Of a stretch of 49,727 nt of DNA, positions 1,845 to 29,358 are shown one piece after another. Position 1 is the first letter of the stretch. Every line of letters starts with the position of its first letter. Position numbers and translations under genes: made by a program. The DNA is from an uncultured Bdellovibrionales bacterium (GTDB taxonomy: Bacteria > Patescibacteriota > Minisyncoccia > Moranbacterales > UBA1568), in the NCBI GenBank assembly GCA_964580285.1, contig CAZOKB010000008.1:1-49727 (forward strand), in the 5' to 3' direction. A model generated the notes under the pieces. The model did not search any database, was not told the DNA's origin, and saw only the letters and a list, made by a program, of their open reading frames with translations.

Positions 1845-4135
1845 CCTTGCAATTGCCCTTTTTCTCCAATCTGATCCAAACGCACCGAGAGCAATTGGGA
1901 AATGCCGTCACGCTGCATCGTCACCCCGTAGAGCAGTCCTGCCTGCGCCATCGTCTCACGATTATGGGTAATAGCGATAAATTGGGTATGATCGGACAGC
2001 TCCTGGAGCATCTTCGAAAACCGGCGGGAATTCGCCTCATCGAGAGCGGCTTCTACTTCATCCAGTACCGCAAACGGTGGCGGATTGTGGGAAATAATCG
2101 CAAACAGCAGCGCGAGCGACGTCAGCGAGCGTTCTCCGCCTGATAGCATAGAAAGATTGGCGATTTTCTTGCCTGGAGGGCAAGCAAAGATTTCGATACC
2201 GATACCATCTTTCTCTTCCTCGCCATCAACCCTTTCTTCCCCTTCTTCCTCAATATCCGTTGATCGTCGTCGGAGCGCGATTCGAACCTTCTCGATATCC
2301 GCCTTACCACCGCCGAAAATAATCTTGAAATAATGTGCAAAACGCTTTTTGATCTCTTCAAAAGTTCTTTCAAAAGCTTCATCGATCTTACGATCCATTT
2401 CCTTGATCACGGACCGCAAAGATTCTATTGCCTGCTTCAGATCAGCCGACTCGTGCGTCAGAAACTCAAAACGCTTAGCTGTTTCTTCGTACTCATCCAC
2501 CACCAAAGGATCAATAGTGCCGATGTGCTCCACTTCCACCTTGAGACGACTGATTTCTCTTTCCAGTCGTTCCCGATCCACCGGAGTCACGCCATCGTAC
2601 GAAAGATTGTCCGTTGGGAGAGAAAGTTCCTCACGCACCAATGTGGTCAGATCTTCTTCACGCACCTCAACCCGCGCCAGGCGCACCTTGAGCTCGTTAA
2701 AATTATCCTTCAGTTGCTGCAGGGCTCGCTCGCATTCACGAGACTCTTTTTCTTTCACAAAAAAAGCCTCTCGATTAAGACGATTCGCCTCACGCCGTTC
2801 GGTAATGAGACGTTCTTTCTCGGCCAGAGTATGTCCAGCTCGCGTTAAGCGTTCACCTATCGAGACAAGCTCGGCTTGAAAAGCAGCGACTCGGGCATCG
2901 CTTTCGGCTTTTTCTTCCGGACTTGGACCGATGATACGCGTCTCACGAACACTGCCTCGGCCAGCATTCTCGGCGAGCTCATATAGTTCCTGCTTGATAA
3001 CCTGGGCAAATTCACGGATATCCTGAAGATCCTCGAGTTTTTCTGCAGCCTGAATTCTTTCAATCAACCGATCCTGATCCGTACCGATTTTCTCAACACC
3101 GCGTTTCACGAAAGCCAGATCCACCGGTATGGTCTCCACGACTTCCTTTTCTTTTACCCGCTCTTTCTCGATTTCCATTCTCCCCTCAATGACACTCTGT
3201 TCGCGCGACAATGCATTCTGCTCTGTACGCAAGACCTGGACCTCTTTTTGCCATGCTTCTTCTTCACCTTGGTCTTCAAGTGCTGCGGACACCCGGACTA
3301 CTTCTTCTCGCAATACCTGCGCTCGCGTTTCTAAATCGAGAATCGTCTGTTCGGCCACCTCGCGGTCTCGCTTGAGCGTTCCGCGTTCCGCCTGAAACTG
3401 GTGCCAGAGAAAGCCGTAGAGCAACAACTGCTTTTCTTTGAGTCTCGCCGCTACATCTTTTCCCTGCGAAGCCTTTTCCGCTTGACGCTTAAGATTCTTG
3501 AGATGTGGCTCAATCTCCATCGTCAACGCATCTACTCGGACAAGATTCTCCTTAGTACTCTCCAATTTACGAATGGCTCGTTCCTTTTCAATCTGGTACT
3601 GTTTCACGCCGGCCGCATCTTCAAAAATTGAACGACGTTCCAAAGGTGATGCTTGCAGCACAGCATCCGACATGCCCTGGGTAATCACACAGTAACTATC
3701 CTTACCAATCCCCCCTTTGGCTAGCAGATCAACAATATCGAGTAAACGCACCTTATTACCATTGATCGCGTATTCACTCTCACCGCTGCGGTAGATCTTG
3801 CGTGTCACCGCCACATCGGAGAACTCAATCGGAATACGCTTATCTGAGTTATCAAAATGGAGCGTTACGGCTGCGCTCCCCATCCGCGCCTTCCCTTCGG
3901 TACCTGCAAAAATAACGTCTTCGGATTTCTTACCCCGGAGATTCTTCGAAGACTGCTCCCCAATAGCCCAACGGATAGCATCAGCAATATTGGATTTCCC
4001 TGATCCATTCGGGCCAACAATCGCTGTAATACCGCAACTGGCTCCCTCTGCCATGGAGCGGTCAGGCAAAAAATCCAACACTGTCTTGTTGGCAAAGGAT
4101 TTAAAACCAGAAATTTCGAGACGTTTGAGATACAT
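1841..4135 (-). CDS. smc: Chromosome segregation ATPase Smc, short form (about 764 aa)
   Basis: MYLKRLEISGFKSFA start, Walker A GPNGSGKSN, signature LSGGE, Walker B VLDEVEAALD, coiled coils; start set at ATG 4135. Confidence 0.92.
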   Translation of the reverse strand: MYLKRLEISGFKSFANKTVLDFLPDRSMAEGASCGITAIVGPNGSGKSNIADAIRWAIGEQSSKNLRGKKSEDVIFAGTEGKARMGSAAVTLHFDNSDKRIPIEFSDVAVTRKIYRSGESEYAINGNKVRLLDIVDLLAKGGIGKDSYCVITQGMSDAVLQASPLERRSIFEDAAGVKQYQIEKERAIRKLESTKENLVRVDALTMEIEPHLKNLKRQAEKASQGKDVAARLKEKQLLLYGFLWHQFQAERGTLKRDREVAEQTILDLETRAQVLREEVVRVSAALEDQGEEEAWQKEVQVLRTEQNALSREQSVIEGRMEIEKERVKEKEVVETIPVDLAFVKRGVEKIGTDQDRLIERIQAAEKLEDLQDIREFAQVIKQELYELAENAGRGSVRETRIIGPSPEEKAESDARVAAFQAELVSIGERLTRAGHTLAEKERLITERREANRLNREAFFVKEKESRECERALQQLKDNFNELKVRLARVEVREEDLTTLVREELSLPTDNLSYDGVTPVDRERLEREISRLKVEVEHIGTIDPLVVDEYEETAKRFEFLTHESADLKQAIESLRSVIKEMDRKIDEAFERTFEEIKKRFAHYFKIIFGGGKADIEKVRIALRRRSTDIEEEGEERVDGEEEKDGIGIEIFACPPGKKIANLSMLSGGERSLTSLALLFAIISHNPPPFAVLDEVEAALDEANSRRFSKMLQELSDHTQFIAITHNRETMAQAGLLYGVTMQRDGISQLLSVRLDQIGEKGQLQG

Positions 4136-23393: not shown

Positions 23394-23870
23394 CTACAAA
23401 ATTTTCATACCATCAATCTTCTCTACTCTTCGAATAAATCTCTCTTCGTTAAGGAACCTTGTCTGTAGAAAAATTTCGATTGCCTTATAAACATCCTTTG
23501 TCTCAATAAAACGCGTAGCAATAGCCAATGCATTGATGTCATCGTGTTCTCTATAGTTTTTTATAATTTCAAAGTCACCGCCATACCAAACACCACATCG
23601 AACATGCGAGTATCTATTTAAAACGATTGACTCACCCATTCCAGACCCTCCAAAAACAATAGCTCTTTGTTTTGGGTACTTCGAAAGCTCACACGCGAGA
23701 GGATGTAATATATCAGGATAATCATCATGCTGATCAAATATCTCTGGACCAAAGTCAGATATACTAAATCCTCTTTCTATTAAAAACAACTTGACGTTCT
23801 CTTTCAAGAAATACCCAGCATGATCACCACCGAGATAAATTAGAGATTTCTCTTTTTCCATAGCTACCAC
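23394..23870 (-). CDS. rpiB: Ribose-5-phosphate isomerase B family protein (Glu-base GGSGxGE type)
   Basis: GGDHAGYFLKE, DDYPD, FGGSGMGESIVLNR, REHDDINAL. Confidence 0.88.
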   Translation of the reverse strand: MVAMEKEKSLIYLGGDHAGYFLKENVKLFLIERGFSISDFGPEIFDQHDDYPDILHPLACELSKYPKQRAIVFGGSGMGESIVLNRYSHVRCGVWYGGDFEIIKNYREHDDINALAIATRFIETKDVYKAIEIFLQTRFLNEERFIRRVEKIDGMKIL

Positions 23871-23872
23871 AA

Positions 23873-25081
23873 CTATACTTTGAATTCATTGACTAAAACT
23901 TCCGTTCCAAGACCGCTTCCAAAAAATCTTTCTTTATCATCAGAAGTAAGTTGCGATGTCCAATTTGAAGCACCGCCATCAATCAAGCTTATTTCTTGGT
24001 CATTACGATTTGTTGCCTTGATCTTGAAGCAAATTCCGTCATAATAACCTATCCCGGCAGTTCTGGATAAATCATAGACGAATCGAACATTCGGGTAGTC
24101 ATTTCTCAGTACCTGAACCTGCTCTCTATCCATCTTCTTTAGTGTACTTATGGCACGATTCATGCTCTTATCCGGATTAAGAAGACTAAAACTATGAATA
24201 TCATCAATTTTTCCTGGCAATCTTATACCAGCAATCTCCAAAATATCAATACCCTTCTTCCGCGTACCCTCAATAACATCCCTTCTACTGATAACCCCTT
24301 CTGCAATAAGACTGTTTATTACATTGATATCCGATAAATAGACCGTGATACTATGTAGAGAATACTCACCCATATTATTCAGTTTTTCAAAACATCCAAG
24401 CCAATAATGCAGGTGCATGAGTTGTTCGTCTTTTTCAAATTCGTATCTGCCGATATCACGACCTGCAGACGTAAGCGTAAATGATGAGAAGTGCTGACGC
24501 AGGTGTTTTTGTGTAAAAACCTGTCCCCTCAATTCTCTGTGTGCATTTGCAAGATGAACGCGATCTATGGCCCGTCTCTCGGAAGAAAACCATCTCTTGT
24601 CATCCATTCGTCTTTTCGCAGACTCTAGGGCCATCACAACTGAAGTATCATTTACAACTTCGACCGGCCTAATCGTTTGTAATATAGTTTTCGGATCGAT
24701 CTTGGTCAAAACACTACTCACTCCAATAGGAGCCACTGGAGAAATCTCAACAAAATCAAAAGAGTCTGGTAAATCCTTTATTAGCATTAACTCCAATTTC
24801 AATCGCTCTTTCGCATCAATATCTGATGGACGAGAAAATCTGTTTTCGCGATAGTTATCCATAAGATCAGAAGCAGAAAGCTCCCTAATCTTTTTCTCAT
24901 ACATATTCATTAAGGCACTCCCAAGTTCCGAAAAACTCAACTCCCCCATCTTCTCCATAGCATTTCTTGTTGGTTCATCGAAACGTTTTTCAATAAGATC
25001 AGCATTCTGCGATTCAACCTTATCATCCTTCGCTTGTTTGACTCCTGCCGGATCCTTATAAAAAGGGTTTTCAATATTCAT
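23873..25081 (-). CDS. Hypothetical protein with class II aaRS (HisRS/HisZ-like) catalytic-core motifs, no anticodon domain
   Basis: HRELRGQVF..HFSSF (motif-2-like), DLSRTAGIGYYDGICF (like the HisRS RGLDYYTG loop), IDGG and GSGLGTE (motif-3-like). Confidence 0.5.
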   Translation of the reverse strand: MNIENPFYKDPAGVKQAKDDKVESQNADLIEKRFDEPTRNAMEKMGELSFSELGSALMNMYEKKIRELSASDLMDNYRENRFSRPSDIDAKERLKLELMLIKDLPDSFDFVEISPVAPIGVSSVLTKIDPKTILQTIRPVEVVNDTSVVMALESAKRRMDDKRWFSSERRAIDRVHLANAHRELRGQVFTQKHLRQHFSSFTLTSAGRDIGRYEFEKDEQLMHLHYWLGCFEKLNNMGEYSLHSITVYLSDINVINSLIAEGVISRRDVIEGTRKKGIDILEIAGIRLPGKIDDIHSFSLLNPDKSMNRAISTLKKMDREQVQVLRNDYPNVRFVYDLSRTAGIGYYDGICFKIKATNRNDQEISLIDGGASNWTSQLTSDDKERFFGSGLGTEVLVNEFKV

Positions 25082-26334
25082 AAGGTACCAACATTATATG
25101 TTATCAATTCATCTAGTCGAGATTTTATTTCCTCGATTTCTTCCATATTTTTCGTAAAATAAGAAAACTCAAAAATCGGGGAAGGGGTGTTTGGGTATGT
25201 CTTCAGCGTATCCCCGATTTTTGCCATGAGTTTGAAATAATTGATGCCTTTGATTTGAGAAAATTTCTCGTATCCATATACACCCAAAAGTACCCCGGGC
25301 GACTGTATGTCAGGATAATAAAGCGCATGATAGTTTATCCCGAACGGACTGAAATCTTTCGGGATAGATTCACCAAGCCAATTCGAATACATAAGATCAA
25401 TCATATCAATGCCATACACTCTATCATACGTCTCATGAATCAGCGCTCCAGCCATCCTCCCAGCAATTTCTATAAGATACGGGATGCCGTCCTTTATTCT
25501 AAATTCCGCATGAAAAGGAGCGTACCCGAAGCCCAATACGTCCACGACATTTTTTAATGCATCCTTAACGGCGGATGATTCAACTTCGCTCAGTTGAGCC
25601 GGGATATAACTTGCCACTTGAGTGAAATACGGCTCTTCCCCCATAATAAACTCTATAGAGCCGACAATCGAAACATCACCGCGAGAGACAAACCCGTCAA
25701 CAGAAATCATTTTTCCTGGTATGTATTCTTCTACAAGCATATTACCTGAAAAATACCGAAATGACTCCCTGATTTCCCGATTCACTGTTTTTGAGATCCT
25801 GTCAGCCAAATCGTCATAATCAAAATTATTGTCACGAATCATAAAGACTCCGTGGCTTGTCGTTCCGAATTGTGGCTTAATAACACAAGGTTTTGGAAAT
25901 CGTTCCAAAACAATACTATCCTCACGATCGTAGATATTGAACGGAGCAAACTTTGGCTGCATCACCTTCCCGGATGTAGCCACTTTTGTTCGCATAGCCA
26001 ACTTATTACTCGAAGTGCACCTTGCTGCCAATTGCCCGATACCATTACAACCCAATAAAGCAGCGAGATCTGCGGTAGCCACCACAAGATCGTCACTAAA
26101 AGTTCCAATAGCATCTATCTTTAAACCATTCTTCTGAATAAAAAAGAATGTTTTCTCTACCATATTTTTGGCGTCAAATACATCGGTAATTATGACGTCG
26201 GTATCCGCAATGTACTTCTTAAAAAAATCCTTAGGCTCGCTTGCCACCATGATGATGCGATAGCCCTTCTCTTTTGCTTTCTTCAGAAGAAATTCTTTTG
26301 CCGTACAGTGTTCAACTAGAAGAATGGTTTTCAT
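25078..26334 (-). CDS. ATP-grasp ligase, L-amino-acid ligase-like
   Basis: NKLAMRTK, PCVIKPQFGTTSHGV, LVEEYIPGKMISVDG, FHAEFRI, LIEIAGRMAG. Confidence 0.88.
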   Translation of the reverse strand: MKTILLVEHCTAKEFLLKKAKEKGYRIIMVASEPKDFFKKYIADTDVIITDVFDAKNMVEKTFFFIQKNGLKIDAIGTFSDDLVVATADLAALLGCNGIGQLAARCTSSNKLAMRTKVATSGKVMQPKFAPFNIYDREDSIVLERFPKPCVIKPQFGTTSHGVFMIRDNNFDYDDLADRISKTVNREIRESFRYFSGNMLVEEYIPGKMISVDGFVSRGDVSIVGSIEFIMGEEPYFTQVASYIPAQLSEVESSAVKDALKNVVDVLGFGYAPFHAEFRIKDGIPYLIEIAGRMAGALIHETYDRVYGIDMIDLMYSNWLGESIPKDFSPFGINYHALYYPDIQSPGVLLGVYGYEKFSQIKGINYFKLMAKIGDTLKTYPNTPSPIFEFSYFTKNMEEIEEIKSRLDELITYNVGTL

Positions 26335-26348
26335 ATTTGATCACATCC

Positions 26349-27368
26349 CTAATTTACAGCACATTCTCCGAGAGATATTATGTTAGATCGTGTATCCAGT
26401 TTCACCACAACTCCCAATGGAAAAGTCAGGATAGGTTTCGTATGTCCGCAATCCACATTCGTTAAAGTCGGTATATTATACTTTTTGGAAATCTCTAGGA
26501 AAATACTTTCTAGAGATCTCTTCTTTTCATTTATCTCTTCAAAGCTGCCGCTTGGTTTAGCAAAAATAAGTCCATTTATCTTGCTGAAAATTCCCTTTCG
26601 CTCCAGCTCAATGAGATATCTTTCATACCAATCCGTAGATAATCCTTCTTCCTCAAGAAAAAGAATGGCTCCGGTTACATCGAAGAAACCATCTTCGTGC
26701 ATCAGCATCGAAAATGTCTGCAAGTTTCCGCCGAAAAGAAGCCCCTCTGTTTCCATCTTTGGGCCAAATGACTTCATTGCTGGTGATTCTTGCATAATCA
26801 GATTCTTCGTATCATCCCTCCCCCAGTACTGATTATCTATCGTGTACATTTTCGAAAATGGAAACGTATCACCGCATCCCGCCTGACCGCTGACAATTTT
26901 TTCAAAATGTTCAAACGTAAACGAAACAGCCCCTTCAAACTCACCGAAGCTTGGAAGTAGTGTTGGGCCATGAAAAGTTACTAATTCGCTTTTTGACGTA
27001 ATCATCAATAAAAGAGTCGTGATATCAGAATAACCACAAAATATTTTTGGGTTCCTTCTTATAAGCTCATAATCGAGCAGGGAAAGCACCGCATTTGCCG
27101 TTAACCCCCCGGTTGAACAAACAATGGCGGAAACTTCAGAATCAAGAAAAGCATCGTGAATATCTGCCGCCCTTTGCTCGGCCGTTCCACCACTATATCC
27201 ATCAGTCGCCAATGCACTTGGCATCATTTTTACCTTGTAACCTTTTCTTTCCAAGAAGCCTATTGCTCTTTGTGTTCTTTCGGAAAATCTCACAATATCA
27301 GAAGACGGGCTTACGATAGCTATCGTGTCACCCCTCTTCAGCGCTCTCGGTTTGATGTAATTTTTCAT
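26349..27368 (-). CDS. S66 family serine peptidase (LD-carboxypeptidase / microcin C immunity MccF-like)
   Basis: LKRGDTIAIVSPSS, GYSDIT (catalytic Ser), LFGGNL, LFLEE (Glu), CGHTKP (His). Confidence 0.92.
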   Translation of the reverse strand: MKNYIKPRALKRGDTIAIVSPSSDIVRFSERTQRAIGFLERKGYKVKMMPSALATDGYSGGTAEQRAADIHDAFLDSEVSAIVCSTGGLTANAVLSLLDYELIRRNPKIFCGYSDITTLLLMITSKSELVTFHGPTLLPSFGEFEGAVSFTFEHFEKIVSGQAGCGDTFPFSKMYTIDNQYWGRDDTKNLIMQESPAMKSFGPKMETEGLLFGGNLQTFSMLMHEDGFFDVTGAILFLEEEGLSTDWYERYLIELERKGIFSKINGLIFAKPSGSFEEINEKKRSLESIFLEISKKYNIPTLTNVDCGHTKPILTFPLGVVVKLDTRSNIISLGECAVN

Positions 27369-28189
27369 ATTTCAACTGTTAAAAAAAGTTCGGCCTCATC
27401 CTGAATCAAGCGTTTCTGATATAAAAATATCGAATAGCCCGCATACTTTAAATTCTCATTAAAAAGCTTGTAGAAATATATCGCTCGCTCTCTGATTTTA
27501 TTCTCCTGCGCTTCGGTCAAATCTGAAAACCTACCTCCTAGCAAGATATCAACGTAAGCTTCAATCTCATTTGCAACATCTAAATACGCATGATCTTCCT
27601 CGTAAAAAAGCTCAAGTATCTTCGCATTTTTATCAGCAACAGTCTCAAACAAGGCTTTCCAGGATTTTTTGTCTCTGATTGTTAAAGGCGTTCCAATCGT
27701 CTCCGATACTTTCTCAACAACATCCTTCGGCGGAGTTTCTCGATAATAGATAGGGACAGCTGCGAGAATGCCGCCTGGTTTCAAAACACGCAGGTACTCG
27801 GAAACCGCTTTTTCTTTATCAGATATAAAAGAAGTCACATTGCTACACCAGACCAAATCGAAAGAATCAGCCTCAAACGGGAGATCCGCAGCATCAGCTC
27901 TCAAAAAATCGACTCTCTCATGAGCCCCTTGAACTTCAGCATATACCTTCGCTTCAGCGATGGAAGATTCATTAACATCTACTCCGATTACCTCGCATCC
28001 CGTCAAGAGACTAAGATTCACACTTGTGAACCCGGTATTACTACCAATTTCAAGTACTTTTTTCGAGGCATTTAAAAAAGCATTAACCGCGACAGAATGT
28101 ACCGTCTTTATGCCCCCAGATGGCCGATTTCTCTCTTTGATAAAACCAACAAATTCGGAATAATTCATTTGATGAACATTCTGCGCCAT
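27365..28189 (-). CDS. Class I SAM-dependent methyltransferase
   Basis: VLEIGSNTG, IGVDVN, ADAADLPFEADSFDLVW, RVLKPGG; start reset to ATG 28189, 11 nt after the upstream stop. Confidence 0.9.
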   Translation of the reverse strand: MAQNVHQMNYSEFVGFIKERNRPSGGIKTVHSVAVNAFLNASKKVLEIGSNTGFTSVNLSLLTGCEVIGVDVNESSIAEAKVYAEVQGAHERVDFLRADAADLPFEADSFDLVWCSNVTSFISDKEKAVSEYLRVLKPGGILAAVPIYYRETPPKDVVEKVSETIGTPLTIRDKKSWKALFETVADKNAKILELFYEEDHAYLDVANEIEAYVDILLGGRFSDLTEAQENKIRERAIYFYKLFNENLKYAGYSIFLYQKRLIQDEAELFLTVEI

Positions 28190-28200
28190 ACGATATATAT

Positions 28201-29358
28201 TTACGGTTTTGGGAGGTGATGTCCTCGGGGAATATGTGTTGCTTCCCATATATACGGTAACTGCAATACCCATTGTACATACCGCTGCCATCCGAGACCG
28301 AAGCCCGAAGTTTTTTGGTAATTCCCCTGAAGCCTCGTCTGAATATACGGATCGTAGTCTCCTTGCGGCAGATTGAATGTCTTCGCCTTTTCCTTCAACG
28401 CTTCCGAGCTCGAAATGCGCGTTCCGCTTCCGACCGTCTCACGATACCCACACAGGATAAAATCCGCGTTCTCGGCGAGCGGAGTGCCGTCCTCGTTCTC
28501 ATTAAGTTCGTTGTGATAGAAAGGAATCTGCAGCAACGGGAATTTCGTCACGATGACGTGCTTGCCGAATATCTCCGTAAGTCTTATTTCTTCCCATGCA
28601 CCGAAATTCTTCAGACTGAATTCCTTGTACACATCATTTCCGGTCTCCCTATGGAGAGCCTCAAGCGCCTCCTTGAAGGTGATCGTAACGATATTTCCCT
28701 CTAAAAAAGCACCTGGAAGCTCTTCAAACTTTGCATCGCCGATAAAATATTTCAGACTTTCTCTCTCATTGACTATGAGGTATTTCGTAATATGACGCAT
28801 CAAACCGAGAAAGATATCGATATTCTGGTCGAAAGAAACCTTCCCCTCGAATTCGATGTGCTGGAATTCCGAAAGGTGACAAAAGTCCGCTTTTTCTTTC
28901 CTGAATGAATTGTATATGGAAAATACTTTATCGATATTCTGTTTCAGAAGCCGGAGCTCGAGATAGAATTGTGAGCTTTCCGAAAGGAAAACATTCCGCT
29001 CATTATCGAACCAGGCTACATCAACTGGGAGCGTATCGGTCGTGTAATCCAGCATTTTCCCGGCATACACTTCTCCCGGGGATGAAATCATGAGCGTCGT
29101 AAGGGGAAGATTGCACCACTCGGCACCGATCGATCGGAAATACTCCACCGCTCCGAAAAATACACCGTTGTCTATCTTATGGAGATGATAAAAATATTCT
29201 GGATCCTGAAAAATCTTTGCAATCCTTCCTGTTGTGATTCCTTCGCTGAAATCGAATTCTCTGACGTCTTCAATGGGCTGGAATACGTTATTTCCGTTGT
29301 ACCTGATCTGTTTCTTGCCGCCATCGGATAGAGCTGAATACGGGCTAAGATTATTCAT
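28201..29358 (-). CDS. AsnRS/AspRS-like class IIb catalytic domain lacking the anticodon-binding domain (asparagine-synthetase AS-AR-like architecture)
   Basis: LSESSQFYLE, motif 2 FRKEKADFCHLSEFQHIEFE, ETVGSGTR, motif 3 SGFGLGWQRYVQW; no recognisable N-terminal OB fold. Confidence 0.85.
   Translation of the reverse strand: MNNLSPYSALSDGGKKQIRYNGNNVFQPIEDVREFDFSEGITTGRIAKIFQDPEYFYHLHKIDNGVFFGAVEYFRSIGAEWCNLPLTTLMISSPGEVYAGKMLDYTTDTLPVDVAWFDNERNVFLSESSQFYLELRLLKQNIDKVFSIYNSFRKEKADFCHLSEFQHIEFEGKVSFDQNIDIFLGLMRHITKYLIVNERESLKYFIGDAKFEELPGAFLEGNIVTITFKEALEALHRETGNDVYKEFSLKNFGAWEEIRLTEIFGKHVIVTKFPLLQIPFYHNELNENEDGTPLAENADFILCGYRETVGSGTRISSSEALKEKAKTFNLPQGDYDPYIQTRLQGNYQKTSGFGLGWQRYVQWVLQLPYIWEATHIPRGHHLPKP

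Follow-up and report, generated by a model that had tools for sequence, protein, structure and literature searches.

A divergent HisRS-like synthetase core in an accessory gene island of a Patescibacteria genome, and its linkage to MccF-type peptidases

The stretch of DNA analysed here, called the window in what follows, comprises positions 1 to 49,727 of contig CAZOKB010000008.1 of assembly GCA_964580285.1, an uncultured member of the Patescibacteria with a genome of 0.97 Mb in 16 contigs (100% complete). Our subject is a gene on its minus strand, at positions 23873-25081, that encodes a 402-aa protein (P0001). The original prediction, made from the sequence alone, had described the product as an orphan with motifs of class II aminoacyl-tRNA synthetases (aaRSs) of the HisRS/HisZ type. 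The plus-strand reading of the same interval is full of stops. The gene and the elements recognised in its product are:

23873..25081, minus strand: open reading frame of 402 aa (protein P0001), long-form member of an unnamed family; from the reading frame and its translation, fold matches and family searches
23876..24874, minus strand: class IIa catalytic-core fold, residues ~70-402; VIA-align range 70-402 with Z 20-22.7, hhalign range 78-402
24479..24541, minus strand: motif 2 hairpin, residues 181-201 (HRELRGQ...HFSSF); model strands E175-184 and E197-208, hhalign, conservation
24092..24313, minus strand: insertion of ~74 residues (257-330) that defines the long-form subfamily; alignment A1, occupancy profile, tree
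24026..24073, minus strand: HisA-like loop, residues 337-352 (R340...GYY); hhalign of GIGYYDG on GLDYYS, conservation
23897..23986, minus strand: HisB-like DGGxxxW block and motif 3 (GSGLGTE-V395); hhalign, counts in column 395

The HisRS-like gene and the fold of its product

All the motif strings on which the original prediction was built are found in the 402-aa minus-strand translation: HRELRGQVF at residues 181-189, HFSSF at 197-201, DLSRTAGIGYYDGICF at 337-352, IDGG at 367-370 and GSGLGTE at 388-394. Their proposed order holds for motif 2 and for the loop resembling GLDYY of HisRS, but IDGG, which had been counted as part of motif 3, matches the GGRYD block of HisRS, and motif 3 is GSGLGTE-V. 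The protein terminates at residue 402, directly after motif 3; only 8 residues remain past the motif-3-like block, and therefore no anticodon-binding domain follows, as had been noted. The predicted 4-nt overlap with the stop codon of the upstream ATP-grasp gene was read directly as ATGA at 25081-25078, and the stop of the HisRS-like gene lies a few bases ahead of the RpiB start.

Comparisons of the sequence with known families gave sub-threshold matches. Pfam tRNA-synt_His (PF13393) matched with an E value of 0.005 (16.6 bits against a cut-off of 25), the NCBIfam models of HisZ with about 16 bits against cut-offs of 272-450 (E 0.003; 16.5 bits against 271.65 for TIGR00443), and a phmmer search of the PDB returned one HisRS match (E 0.07). 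A profile made from alignment A1 and run against PDB sequences gave HisRS at E 0.31, along with spurious haemoglobin and designed-repeat matches. An AlphaFold2 model built on 23 homologues had a predicted local distance difference test score (pLDDT) of 78 and a predicted TM-score (pTM) of 0.78, and Foldseek matched it to HisRS and HisZ chains (E 1e-11, probability 1.0). In VIA-align the best structural match was HisZ 5m8h_B (Z 22.7, root-mean-square deviation 3.4 A over 269 residues), next to human HisRS 4g84_A (Z 22.6, 3.2 A over 277 residues) and the HisRS-like domain of GCN2 (Z ~22); HisRS and HisZ were also the nearest named structures in the ESM Atlas (TM ~0.65). With hhalign, a profile of 170 family sequences aligned to HisRS/HisZ over residues 78-402 (probability 85%, E 5.9e-6), while a 23-sequence profile aligned over the C-terminal half only (probability 62%). 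The model, Foldseek, VIA-align and the 170-sequence alignment agree on the class II core that the motifs had suggested, and the antiparallel beta-sheet fold of that class, by which the original prediction was to be judged, is predicted. The gene encodes a genuine, highly divergent class IIa aaRS catalytic core with the HisRS/HisZ fold, to which an extra helical N-terminus of about 70 residues is added.

HisRS structures (for example 4g84, 4phc and 1kmm) share this fold with Z scores of 19.7-22.6. Common to HisRS and the family are the motif 1 Pro, an acid-x-Thr element that binds the amine (D145-x-T147 here, RPE-x-T in HisRS), the motif 2 Arg, the YY loop, the GG block and the G-x-G-x-E portion of motif 3, and the insertion of the family's long form lies at the site of the HisRS insertion domain. 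The differences are as marked: P0001 is only 12-15% identical to HisRS, scores below the Pfam cut-off and is without an anticodon-binding domain, its motif 3 Arg is replaced by Val and its GGRYD block by DGGxxxW, and HisRS has no counterpart of the ~70-residue helical N-terminus. The host genome also has its own normal HisRS, on contig 4. HisRS was rejected as the identity of the protein on three of these grounds, the score below the PF13393 cut-off, the missing C-terminal anticodon-binding domain and the separate HisRS. HisZ is likewise without an anticodon-reading function and, in alignment A2, has likewise lost the motif 3 Arg, but it has also lost the motif 2 Arg, which the family keeps. 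HisG (PF01634) was not found in the complete host genome, while all control genomes gave a match; a HisZ function was rejected for this reason, and the scores far below the equivalog cut-offs also stand against a HisZ identity. In genomes of Roseateles and Ideonella a HisRS, a true HisZ and a family member are all present. The family is a separate HisRS-like paralogue alongside HisRS and HisZ.

The fold as such would suit a tRNA-dependent enzyme that charges a tRNA, or recognises its acceptor stem, without reading the anticodon and feeds aminoacyl-tRNA to a downstream transferase. HisRS identity elements are read mainly in the acceptor stem, and two clusters related to the one described here contain a full GluRS. 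We nevertheless judge such an enzyme to be very unlikely, as the anticodon-binding domain and the motif 3 Arg are missing and as no tRNA gene or aminoacyl-tRNA-dependent transferase (of the Fem, cyclodipeptide synthase or PEARL type) was found among the island proteins scanned.

An unnamed family and its active-site residues

The protein is not an orphan, as had been supposed. A word-indexed search returned only 23 relatives, but an exhaustive profile search returned some 2000 family cluster representatives (2075 at E<1e-3, 816 at E<1e-30). In calling the family uncharacterised and normally labelled 'hypothetical', on the other hand, the original prediction was right: there is no Pfam or NCBIfam model for any member tested, and the relatives in the ESM Atlas are all named 'hypothetical protein'. 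PADLOC gave no match for P0001, P0160 or P0022, and for the methyltransferase encoded nearby only a generic methyltransferase match; the literature search turned up no relevant account of a HisRS-like or aaRS-like family with ties to MccF, GNAT or ATP-grasp. The family would add a further HisRS-like branch that is large (~800 clusters at E<1e-30), spread over several phyla and unnamed in both databases.

Members occur in two forms, a short one of ~305-330 aa and a long one of ~365-400 aa, the latter carrying inserted residues where HisRS has its insertion domain. In a tree calculated without the insertion columns, 65 of the 73 long forms made up one clade (support 0.98), and three changes of form suffice. 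Short forms were found in Steroidobacteraceae, Roseateles and Ideonella, Polyangia, Vicinamibacteria and others; long forms in metagenome-assembled genomes of Paceibacterota and Saccharibacteria, on Bacillus plasmids and in metagenome loci (GC 0.31-0.67). There are natural fusions to a GNAT acetyltransferase, at either end of the protein, and one to an AHSA1/SRPBCC domain. The GNAT domain of P0160 has as its best PDB match MccE, the microcin C acetyltransferase (8.8e-9). Short forms have an amidase as their commonest neighbour: in 17 of 162 loci an amidase-signature enzyme of ~516-535 aa is encoded directly upstream on the same strand (L049, L029, L020, L023, L076, L106, L112, L113, L118 and others), and the family may here have formed a second type of partnership with an amide hydrolase. 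Other short-form neighbours, such as a TonB receptor, a cupin, a tricorn protease and FolD, resemble the synteny of the respective clades. One short form (L177, 8007-8966) is encoded on a conjugative cyanobacterial plasmid, pCHRO.01 of Chroococcidiopsis thermalis, where its neighbours are genes of the VOC, GFA and YciI families and a sigma factor, with no S66 gene nearby.

The conservation of residues was assessed in 170 family members, 73 long and 97 short. P115, which aligns to the motif 1 Pro of HisRS, is present in 170/170. Highly conserved are also R138 (96%), E141 (98%), D145 (98%) and T147 (82%); in the motif 2 region R182 (95%), R185 (98%), Q187 (96%), H197 (96%) and F198 (97%); and towards the C-terminus Y346 and Y347 (95%), D368 (97%), G369 and G370 (at least 96%, with 98% for G370), W374 (98%) and G392 (98%). 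In the hhalign alignment D145-x-T147 falls onto the amine-binding RPE-x-T element of HisRS, GIGYY pairs with GLDYY, DGGxxN/D with GGRYD, and GSGLGTE-V with G-x-G-x-ER. The same alignment seats R185 on the Arg of the motif 2 sequence FRHE of HisRS, and a manual register puts R182 there; both are conserved, which answers the question that the original prediction had raised about a motif 2 Arg across homologues. R340 of the HisA-like loop is found in 73/73 long forms; in HisRS the loop Arg (that of RGLDYY, which we take to be E. coli Arg259) stands two residues closer to the YY pair. The positions of the motif 2 Gln and Glu of HisRS, presumably the histidine-binding Gln127 and Glu131 of E. coli, are Ser and Thr here in the manual register and are not conserved in the family. 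Histidine is for this reason not the predicted ligand, and its rejection as a substrate is based also on the reading of DGGxxxW in place of GGRYD.

The motif 3 Arg contacts ATP in canonical class II enzymes. At its position P0001 has Val395, and among the 170 members column 395 reads Leu in 99, Arg in 37 and Val in 9. The canonical Arg is thus present in 22% of members, all of them short forms (37/97) and the GNAT and AHSA1 fusions among them, which argues for an ancestrally ATP-using enzyme; its absence from all the long forms would allow for a non-catalytic, HisZ-like binding role. Since neither the motif 2 Arg nor the motif 3 Arg is left in the true HisZ sequences aligned, the family is better preserved than HisZ, yet it is not canonical.

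A binding role of this kind would make the protein a non-catalytic ligand-binding, regulatory or specificity subunit, as are HisZ and the HisRS-like domain of GCN2. Its aaRS-derived pocket would recognise an amino acid or an aminoacyl-adenylate-like ligand and pass it to a partner enzyme, or gate that enzyme; the part of this enzyme would fall here to the adjacent S66 peptidase or to the coupled ATP-grasp protein, and in other lineages to the fused GNAT or the adjacent amidase. That all long forms, like HisZ, are without the motif 3 Arg is consistent with such a role, and so is the presence of HisZ and the GCN2 domain among the closest structures, with the same Z as HisRS. It would also fit the catalytic partners, which are tight and often translationally coupled (the ATGA shared with the ATP-grasp gene; S66 overlaps of 4 nt and 1 nt in L129 and L109), fused (GNAT on either end, SRPBCC once) or, in 17 short-form loci, placed directly upstream (the amidase). 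However, the family, unlike HisZ, keeps the motif 2 Arg, the adenine-facing H197/F198 and, in long forms, R340, and the canonical motif 3 Arg is found in more than a fifth of members, GNAT fusions included. S66/MccF enzymes, moreover, act alone (PMC8323819), and 8 relatives have an S66 gene and no HisRS-like gene. Weighing these points, we consider a subunit role unlikely, if well within reason.

Other truncated class II cores, among them AsnA/AS-AR, EpmA and the SerRS-like amino acid:carrier-protein ligases, employ their adenylation site in chemistry outside translation. They stem from the class IIb or SerRS lineages, not from HisRS, and to our knowledge they keep the motif 3 Arg. Two HisRS-derived paralogues are well known to us, HisZ and the GCN2 domain, and neither of them is catalytic. 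If the long forms are catalytic, a class II active site can function without the motif 3 Arg; if they are not, they would be another aaRS core reused as a ligand sensor.

The six-gene island and its agrocin 84 homologues

The HisRS-like gene belongs to an island of six genes at 23394-29358, between ligA and the gatC/gatA region. On the minus strand, ligA is followed by genes for an AsnRS/AsnA-like core, an S-adenosylmethionine (SAM) methyltransferase, an S66 peptidase, an ATP-grasp enzyme, the HisRS-like protein and RpiB; past RpiB come a spacer and then GatA of the housekeeping amidotransferase. The neighbours of the HisRS-like gene in the island are:

28201..29358, minus strand: AsnRS/AsnA-like class II core without anticodon domain, AgnA homologue; Pfam tRNA-synt_2 (E 2.9e-25), AgnA match
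27365..28291, minus strand: class I SAM methyltransferase, AgnB1 homologue; Pfam Methyltransf_11, AgnB1 match
26349..27368, minus strand: S66 serine peptidase of MccF type, AgnC5 homologue; Pfam S66 N- and C-terminal domains, MccF and AgnC5 matches
25078..26334, minus strand: ATP-grasp enzyme of L-amino-acid-ligase type, translationally coupled to the HisRS-like gene; Pfam ATP-grasp_4 (E 5.7e-22), ATGA overlap
23394..23870, minus strand: RpiB/LacAB-family sugar-phosphate isomerase; Pfam and NCBIfam

The island is accessory and horizontally acquired. Its GC content is 0.39-0.43, against 0.47-0.51 in the flanks, and this low GC together with the location between ligA and gatC/gatA fits a horizontally acquired insert. 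The HisRS-like gene was not found in the 9 same-genus and 15 other same-family genomes searched, and it was found in 2 of 16 genomes of the same order. One same-genus genome (G008) carries the same island with 91-94% protein identity (L187, G008:C15, 5416-10004); its methyltransferase is split into open reading frames of 124 and 112 aa, possibly by a frameshift, and its contig breaks off inside the ATP-grasp gene or just past it, so that the HisRS-like gene may merely be missing from the assembly there. RpiB is the sole ribose-5-phosphate isomerase of the host genome, which has no RpiA. The RpiB family was not found in any of the 24 same-family genomes searched, which appear to do altogether without this type of enzyme; a reading of RpiB as a housekeeping neighbour was rejected on this ground, and RpiB is taken to have come with the island. 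The pair of HisRS-like and ATP-grasp genes, with RpiB in the same place, recurs in L001, L096 and L086. In the last of these (genome G040, contig C2; 8429-8737 and G040:C2:15437-15863) the island RpiB is broken in two, and a second, intact RpiB lies on another contig. It is a speculation that RpiB as cargo points to sugar-phosphate or nucleoside chemistry.

Three of the neighbours are homologous to proteins of the agrocin 84 cluster on plasmid pAgK84 (gene names from record CP000632), which the original prediction had overlooked. By blastp, the AsnRS-like core matched AgnA ('Agrocin84-synthetase') with 27% identity (E 3e-30, 87% of the length), the methyltransferase matched AgnB1, encoded directly downstream of agnA, with 42% identity (E 6e-66), and the S66 peptidase matched AgnC5, annotated as 'MccF-like', with 28% identity (E 5e-40). 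In the PDB, the S66 protein matched MccF structures at 1.8e-49 and LdcA-type structures at 1e-15 to 1e-23. The best PDB matches of the ATP-grasp protein were the L-amino acid ligase 3vot (8.6e-18) and BacD, and there were weak matches of the gene to D-Ala-D-Ala ligase models.

These last matches, and the fact that LdcA belongs to the S66 family, could be taken in favour of a housekeeping function, either as a true HisZ or HisRS fragment, towards which the weak HisZ model matches (E 0.003) point, or in the recycling of cell-wall peptides, where its partners would be an S66 carboxypeptidase of LdcA type and an ATP-grasp enzyme resembling Ddl. We regard this as highly improbable. The HisZ version is largely refuted, as the genome has no HisG but a normal HisRS and as the HisZ scores are 16 bits against cut-offs of 272-450; the S66 protein resembles MccF far more than LdcA, its neighbours are agn homologues, and the gene, missing from the 24 same-family genomes searched, lies in an island of foreign GC.

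The biosynthetic pathway of agrocin 84 is unknown; AgnA and the remotely ProRS-like AgnC1 are the candidates for joining the amide moiety to the nucleotide through a phosphoramidate bond, and the SAM enzymes of the cluster are AgnB1, AgnC3 and AgnC7 (PMC8323819). MccF, which commonly has stand-alone homologues, cuts the aminoacyl-nucleotide bond; where an agn-like cluster holds an extra aaRS gene, it is read as an immunity gene that reveals the target (PMC8323819). In the pAgK84 record agnA is followed by AgnB1 and the resistant LeuRS AgnB2. Like the HisRS-like protein, AgnC1 and AgnA are class II aaRS-like proteins without an anticodon domain, found beside an AgnB1-type methyltransferase and an MccF-like peptidase, and the island shares its AgnA, AgnB1 and AgnC5 homologues together with that cluster. 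The HisRS-like protein, however, is homologous neither to AgnA, which is AsnRS-like and of class IIb, nor detectably to AgnC1, whose only PDB hint is ProRS (E 0.31). The island also differs in having no AgnB2-type resistant aaRS, none of AgnC2-C7 other than the AgnC5 homologue, no AgnD-G and no exporter, and in having an ATP-grasp ligase and RpiB instead.

With microcin C the likeness lies in the partner genes, as MccF-type S66, MccE-type GNAT and major facilitator superfamily (MFS) pump genes accompany the family member across related loci. It is because of these partners that the family member would seem to occupy the place of the nucleotide-attaching enzyme. In microcin C, by contrast, that enzyme, MccB, has the ThiF/E1 fold and acts on a ribosomal peptide; Pfam and NCBIfam scans found no ThiF-like domain among the island proteins, and short peptide reading frames of the MccA precursor type were not searched.

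Long-form loci and the proposed role of the HisRS-like protein

The original prediction had noted the overlap with the ATP-grasp gene but had missed that the S66 peptidase gene, and not the ATP-grasp gene, is the nearly constant companion of long forms. Of 14 distinct long-form loci, 13 have an S66 gene next to the family member or no more than 2.5 kb away, with differing gene order and orientation (the window, L001/L101, L096, L086, L087, L002/L099, L097, L098, L100, L103, L109/L110, L129 and the Bacillus plasmids). Eight of the 14 loci encode an AsnRS-like core, about 9 a methyltransferase, and 4 ATP-grasp with RpiB. In L098 the order is S66, family member, GluRS-like; in L129 it is a GNAT of the Acetyltransf_3 family (MccE-type), S66, family member, MFS; and in L109 it is AsnRS-like, S66, family member, methyltransferase, GNAT. 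The S66 gene and the family member overlap by 4 nt or 1 nt in L129 and L109. The minimal loci L087 and L002 have S66 and the family member only. The long form is accessory to mobile clusters in which an MccF-type S66 peptidase is the central element. Two stricter statements were rejected: an S66 gene is not always adjacent (L123), and it does not imply a HisRS-like gene, as 8 relatives carry S66 alone.

In L087 the S66 gene (2331-3356) abuts the family member, and ~1.2 kb upstream of this S66 gene lies an rve-type integrase (transposase) gene at 322-1143; the integrase fits a mobility of the module. In the Saccharibacteria locus L002/L099 the S66 gene (~8092-9122 in L099 coordinates) is split into reading frames of 190 and 150 aa, perhaps as a pseudogene or through a sequencing frameshift.

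Long forms were found also in a cultured organism, on two plasmids of Bacillus pseudomycoides (L176 and L195; NZ_CP007624 and NZ_CP009649), with 29% identity (E 9e-48). The cluster order there is ATP-grasp, an extra GluRS that barely passes the gltX equivalog cut-off, methyltransferase, family member, MFS efflux pump, S66, pyridoxal phosphate (PLP) aminotransferase, a PP-loop amidotransferase-like gene and IS6. A second module about 10 kb off comprises a methyltransferase, an AsnA-like gene and ATP-grasp, near an adenosylhomocysteinase gene, which parallels the reported need for S-adenosylhomocysteine hydrolase in agrocin production. The spare aaRS and the exporter of agn-type clusters, which the window island does not have, are thus present in related clusters: the Bacillus pseudomycoides plasmid has both, as GluRS and MFS, while L098 has a GluRS-like gene and L129 an MFS gene.

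The partner genes could also be read as those of a resistance island, in which the HisRS-like protein would be a factor of immunity or detoxification that binds, sequesters or modifies an incoming aminoacyl-nucleotide inhibitor of aaRSs beside the MccF-like hydrolase and, in other loci, beside MccE-like GNATs, MFS pumps and spare copies of aaRSs. Every recurrent partner (S66/MccF, GNAT, MFS, extra GluRS) is of a known immunity type of microcin C or agrocin, the minimal loci consist of S66 and the HisRS-like gene only, and the window island is without an exporter. Clearly anabolic neighbours argue for the opposite, namely ATP-grasp, the AgnA-like core and the methyltransferase in the window, and the PLP aminotransferase and PP-loop amidotransferase on the Bacillus plasmid; stoichiometric sequestration would be costly for a 1-Mb genome, and the literature search brought up no earlier example of such a decoy with an aaRS fold. 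We think an immunity function improbable.

The reading that we favour, and to which we would give an even chance, is that the HisRS-like protein is a tRNA-independent amino-acid/nucleotide ligase in the pathway of an aminoacyl-nucleotide 'Trojan horse' compound. It is the most economical one because the amine site and most of the nucleotide site are kept and because the linkage to MccF-type peptidases is repeated. It is suggested further by the three agn homologues around the gene, the coupling to ATP-grasp and the foreign, patchy island, and by the spare GluRS genes, MccE-like GNATs and MFS pumps of related clusters. Working without tRNA, the protein would bind an alpha-amino acid or an amino-acid amide through the D145-x-T147, YY and GG-x-x-D elements, and a nucleotide through the motif 2 Arg (R185 or R182), H197/F198 and R340 of the HisA-like loop. 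It would then catalyse an adenylation, a nucleotidyl transfer (to the amide) or an aminoacyl transfer, a step that supplies one of the bonds in a 'Trojan horse' antimetabolite of aminoacyl-nucleotide or small peptidyl type. A further amino acid would come from the coupled ATP-grasp enzyme, and the MccF-like peptidase would shield the producer by cutting the aminoacyl-nucleotide bond. We infer the catalysis, the substrates and the product, and with them the adenylation or transfer activity named in the original prediction. A more specific version is doubtful, though conceivable: the long forms would be an unrecognised, HisRS-derived catalytic lineage, with an ATP site in which the motif 3 Arg, retained by the class II enzymes known to us, has been replaced, that makes the aminoacyl-nucleotide bond (for example an N-acyl phosphoramidate) or adds a second moiety in aaRS inhibitors resembling agrocin or microcin C.

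Several observations weigh against a ligase. In the active site, the canonical motif 3 Arg is found in 0/73 long forms, the non-catalytic HisZ shows an equal loss in alignment A2, the motif 2 Glu (of fRxE) is not conserved in the family, and the active-site loops at residues 117-143 were modelled with pLDDT <50. In agrocin 84, the system of reference, no family member is encoded on pAgK84, where a search of the Agn proteins with the family hidden Markov model gave no match up to an E value of 10, and AgnC1 shows no sequence relation to the family (hhalign with alignment A1, probability 0.2%). As for the gene neighbourhoods, Pfam and NCBIfam scans found neither an exporter nor a spare full-length aaRS among the window island genes, there is no universal partner in the 162 short-form loci, and the distant long-form locus L123 has no S66 gene on its 8.4-kb contig. 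An S66 gene is present in 11 of 41 relatives, 8 of them without a HisRS-like gene, which fits the resistance reading too; and the trio of AsnRS-like, methyltransferase and S66 genes occurs without the HisRS-like gene in G024 and G001, so that the gene is dispensable for the role of the trio.

If the more specific version holds, with the long forms as a catalytic lineage, the window would contain a candidate biosynthetic island for an aaRS inhibitor in a 1-Mb Patescibacteria genome, and the cultured Bacillus pseudomycoides plasmids would offer a tractable relative, with GluRS as the probable target. The island points to antibiotic-type chemistry, or to resistance, in a very small and probably episymbiotic genome. 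The pairing with MccF-type peptidases and agn homologues leads to a testable hypothesis, that the family could provide the missing, or an alternative, bond-forming enzyme of aminoacyl-nucleotide antibiotics. Homologues of the AsnRS-like core were also seen on Pantoea agglomerans plasmids, under genes annotated as 'GNAT family N-acetyltransferase', and these may be AsnA-like/GNAT fusions.

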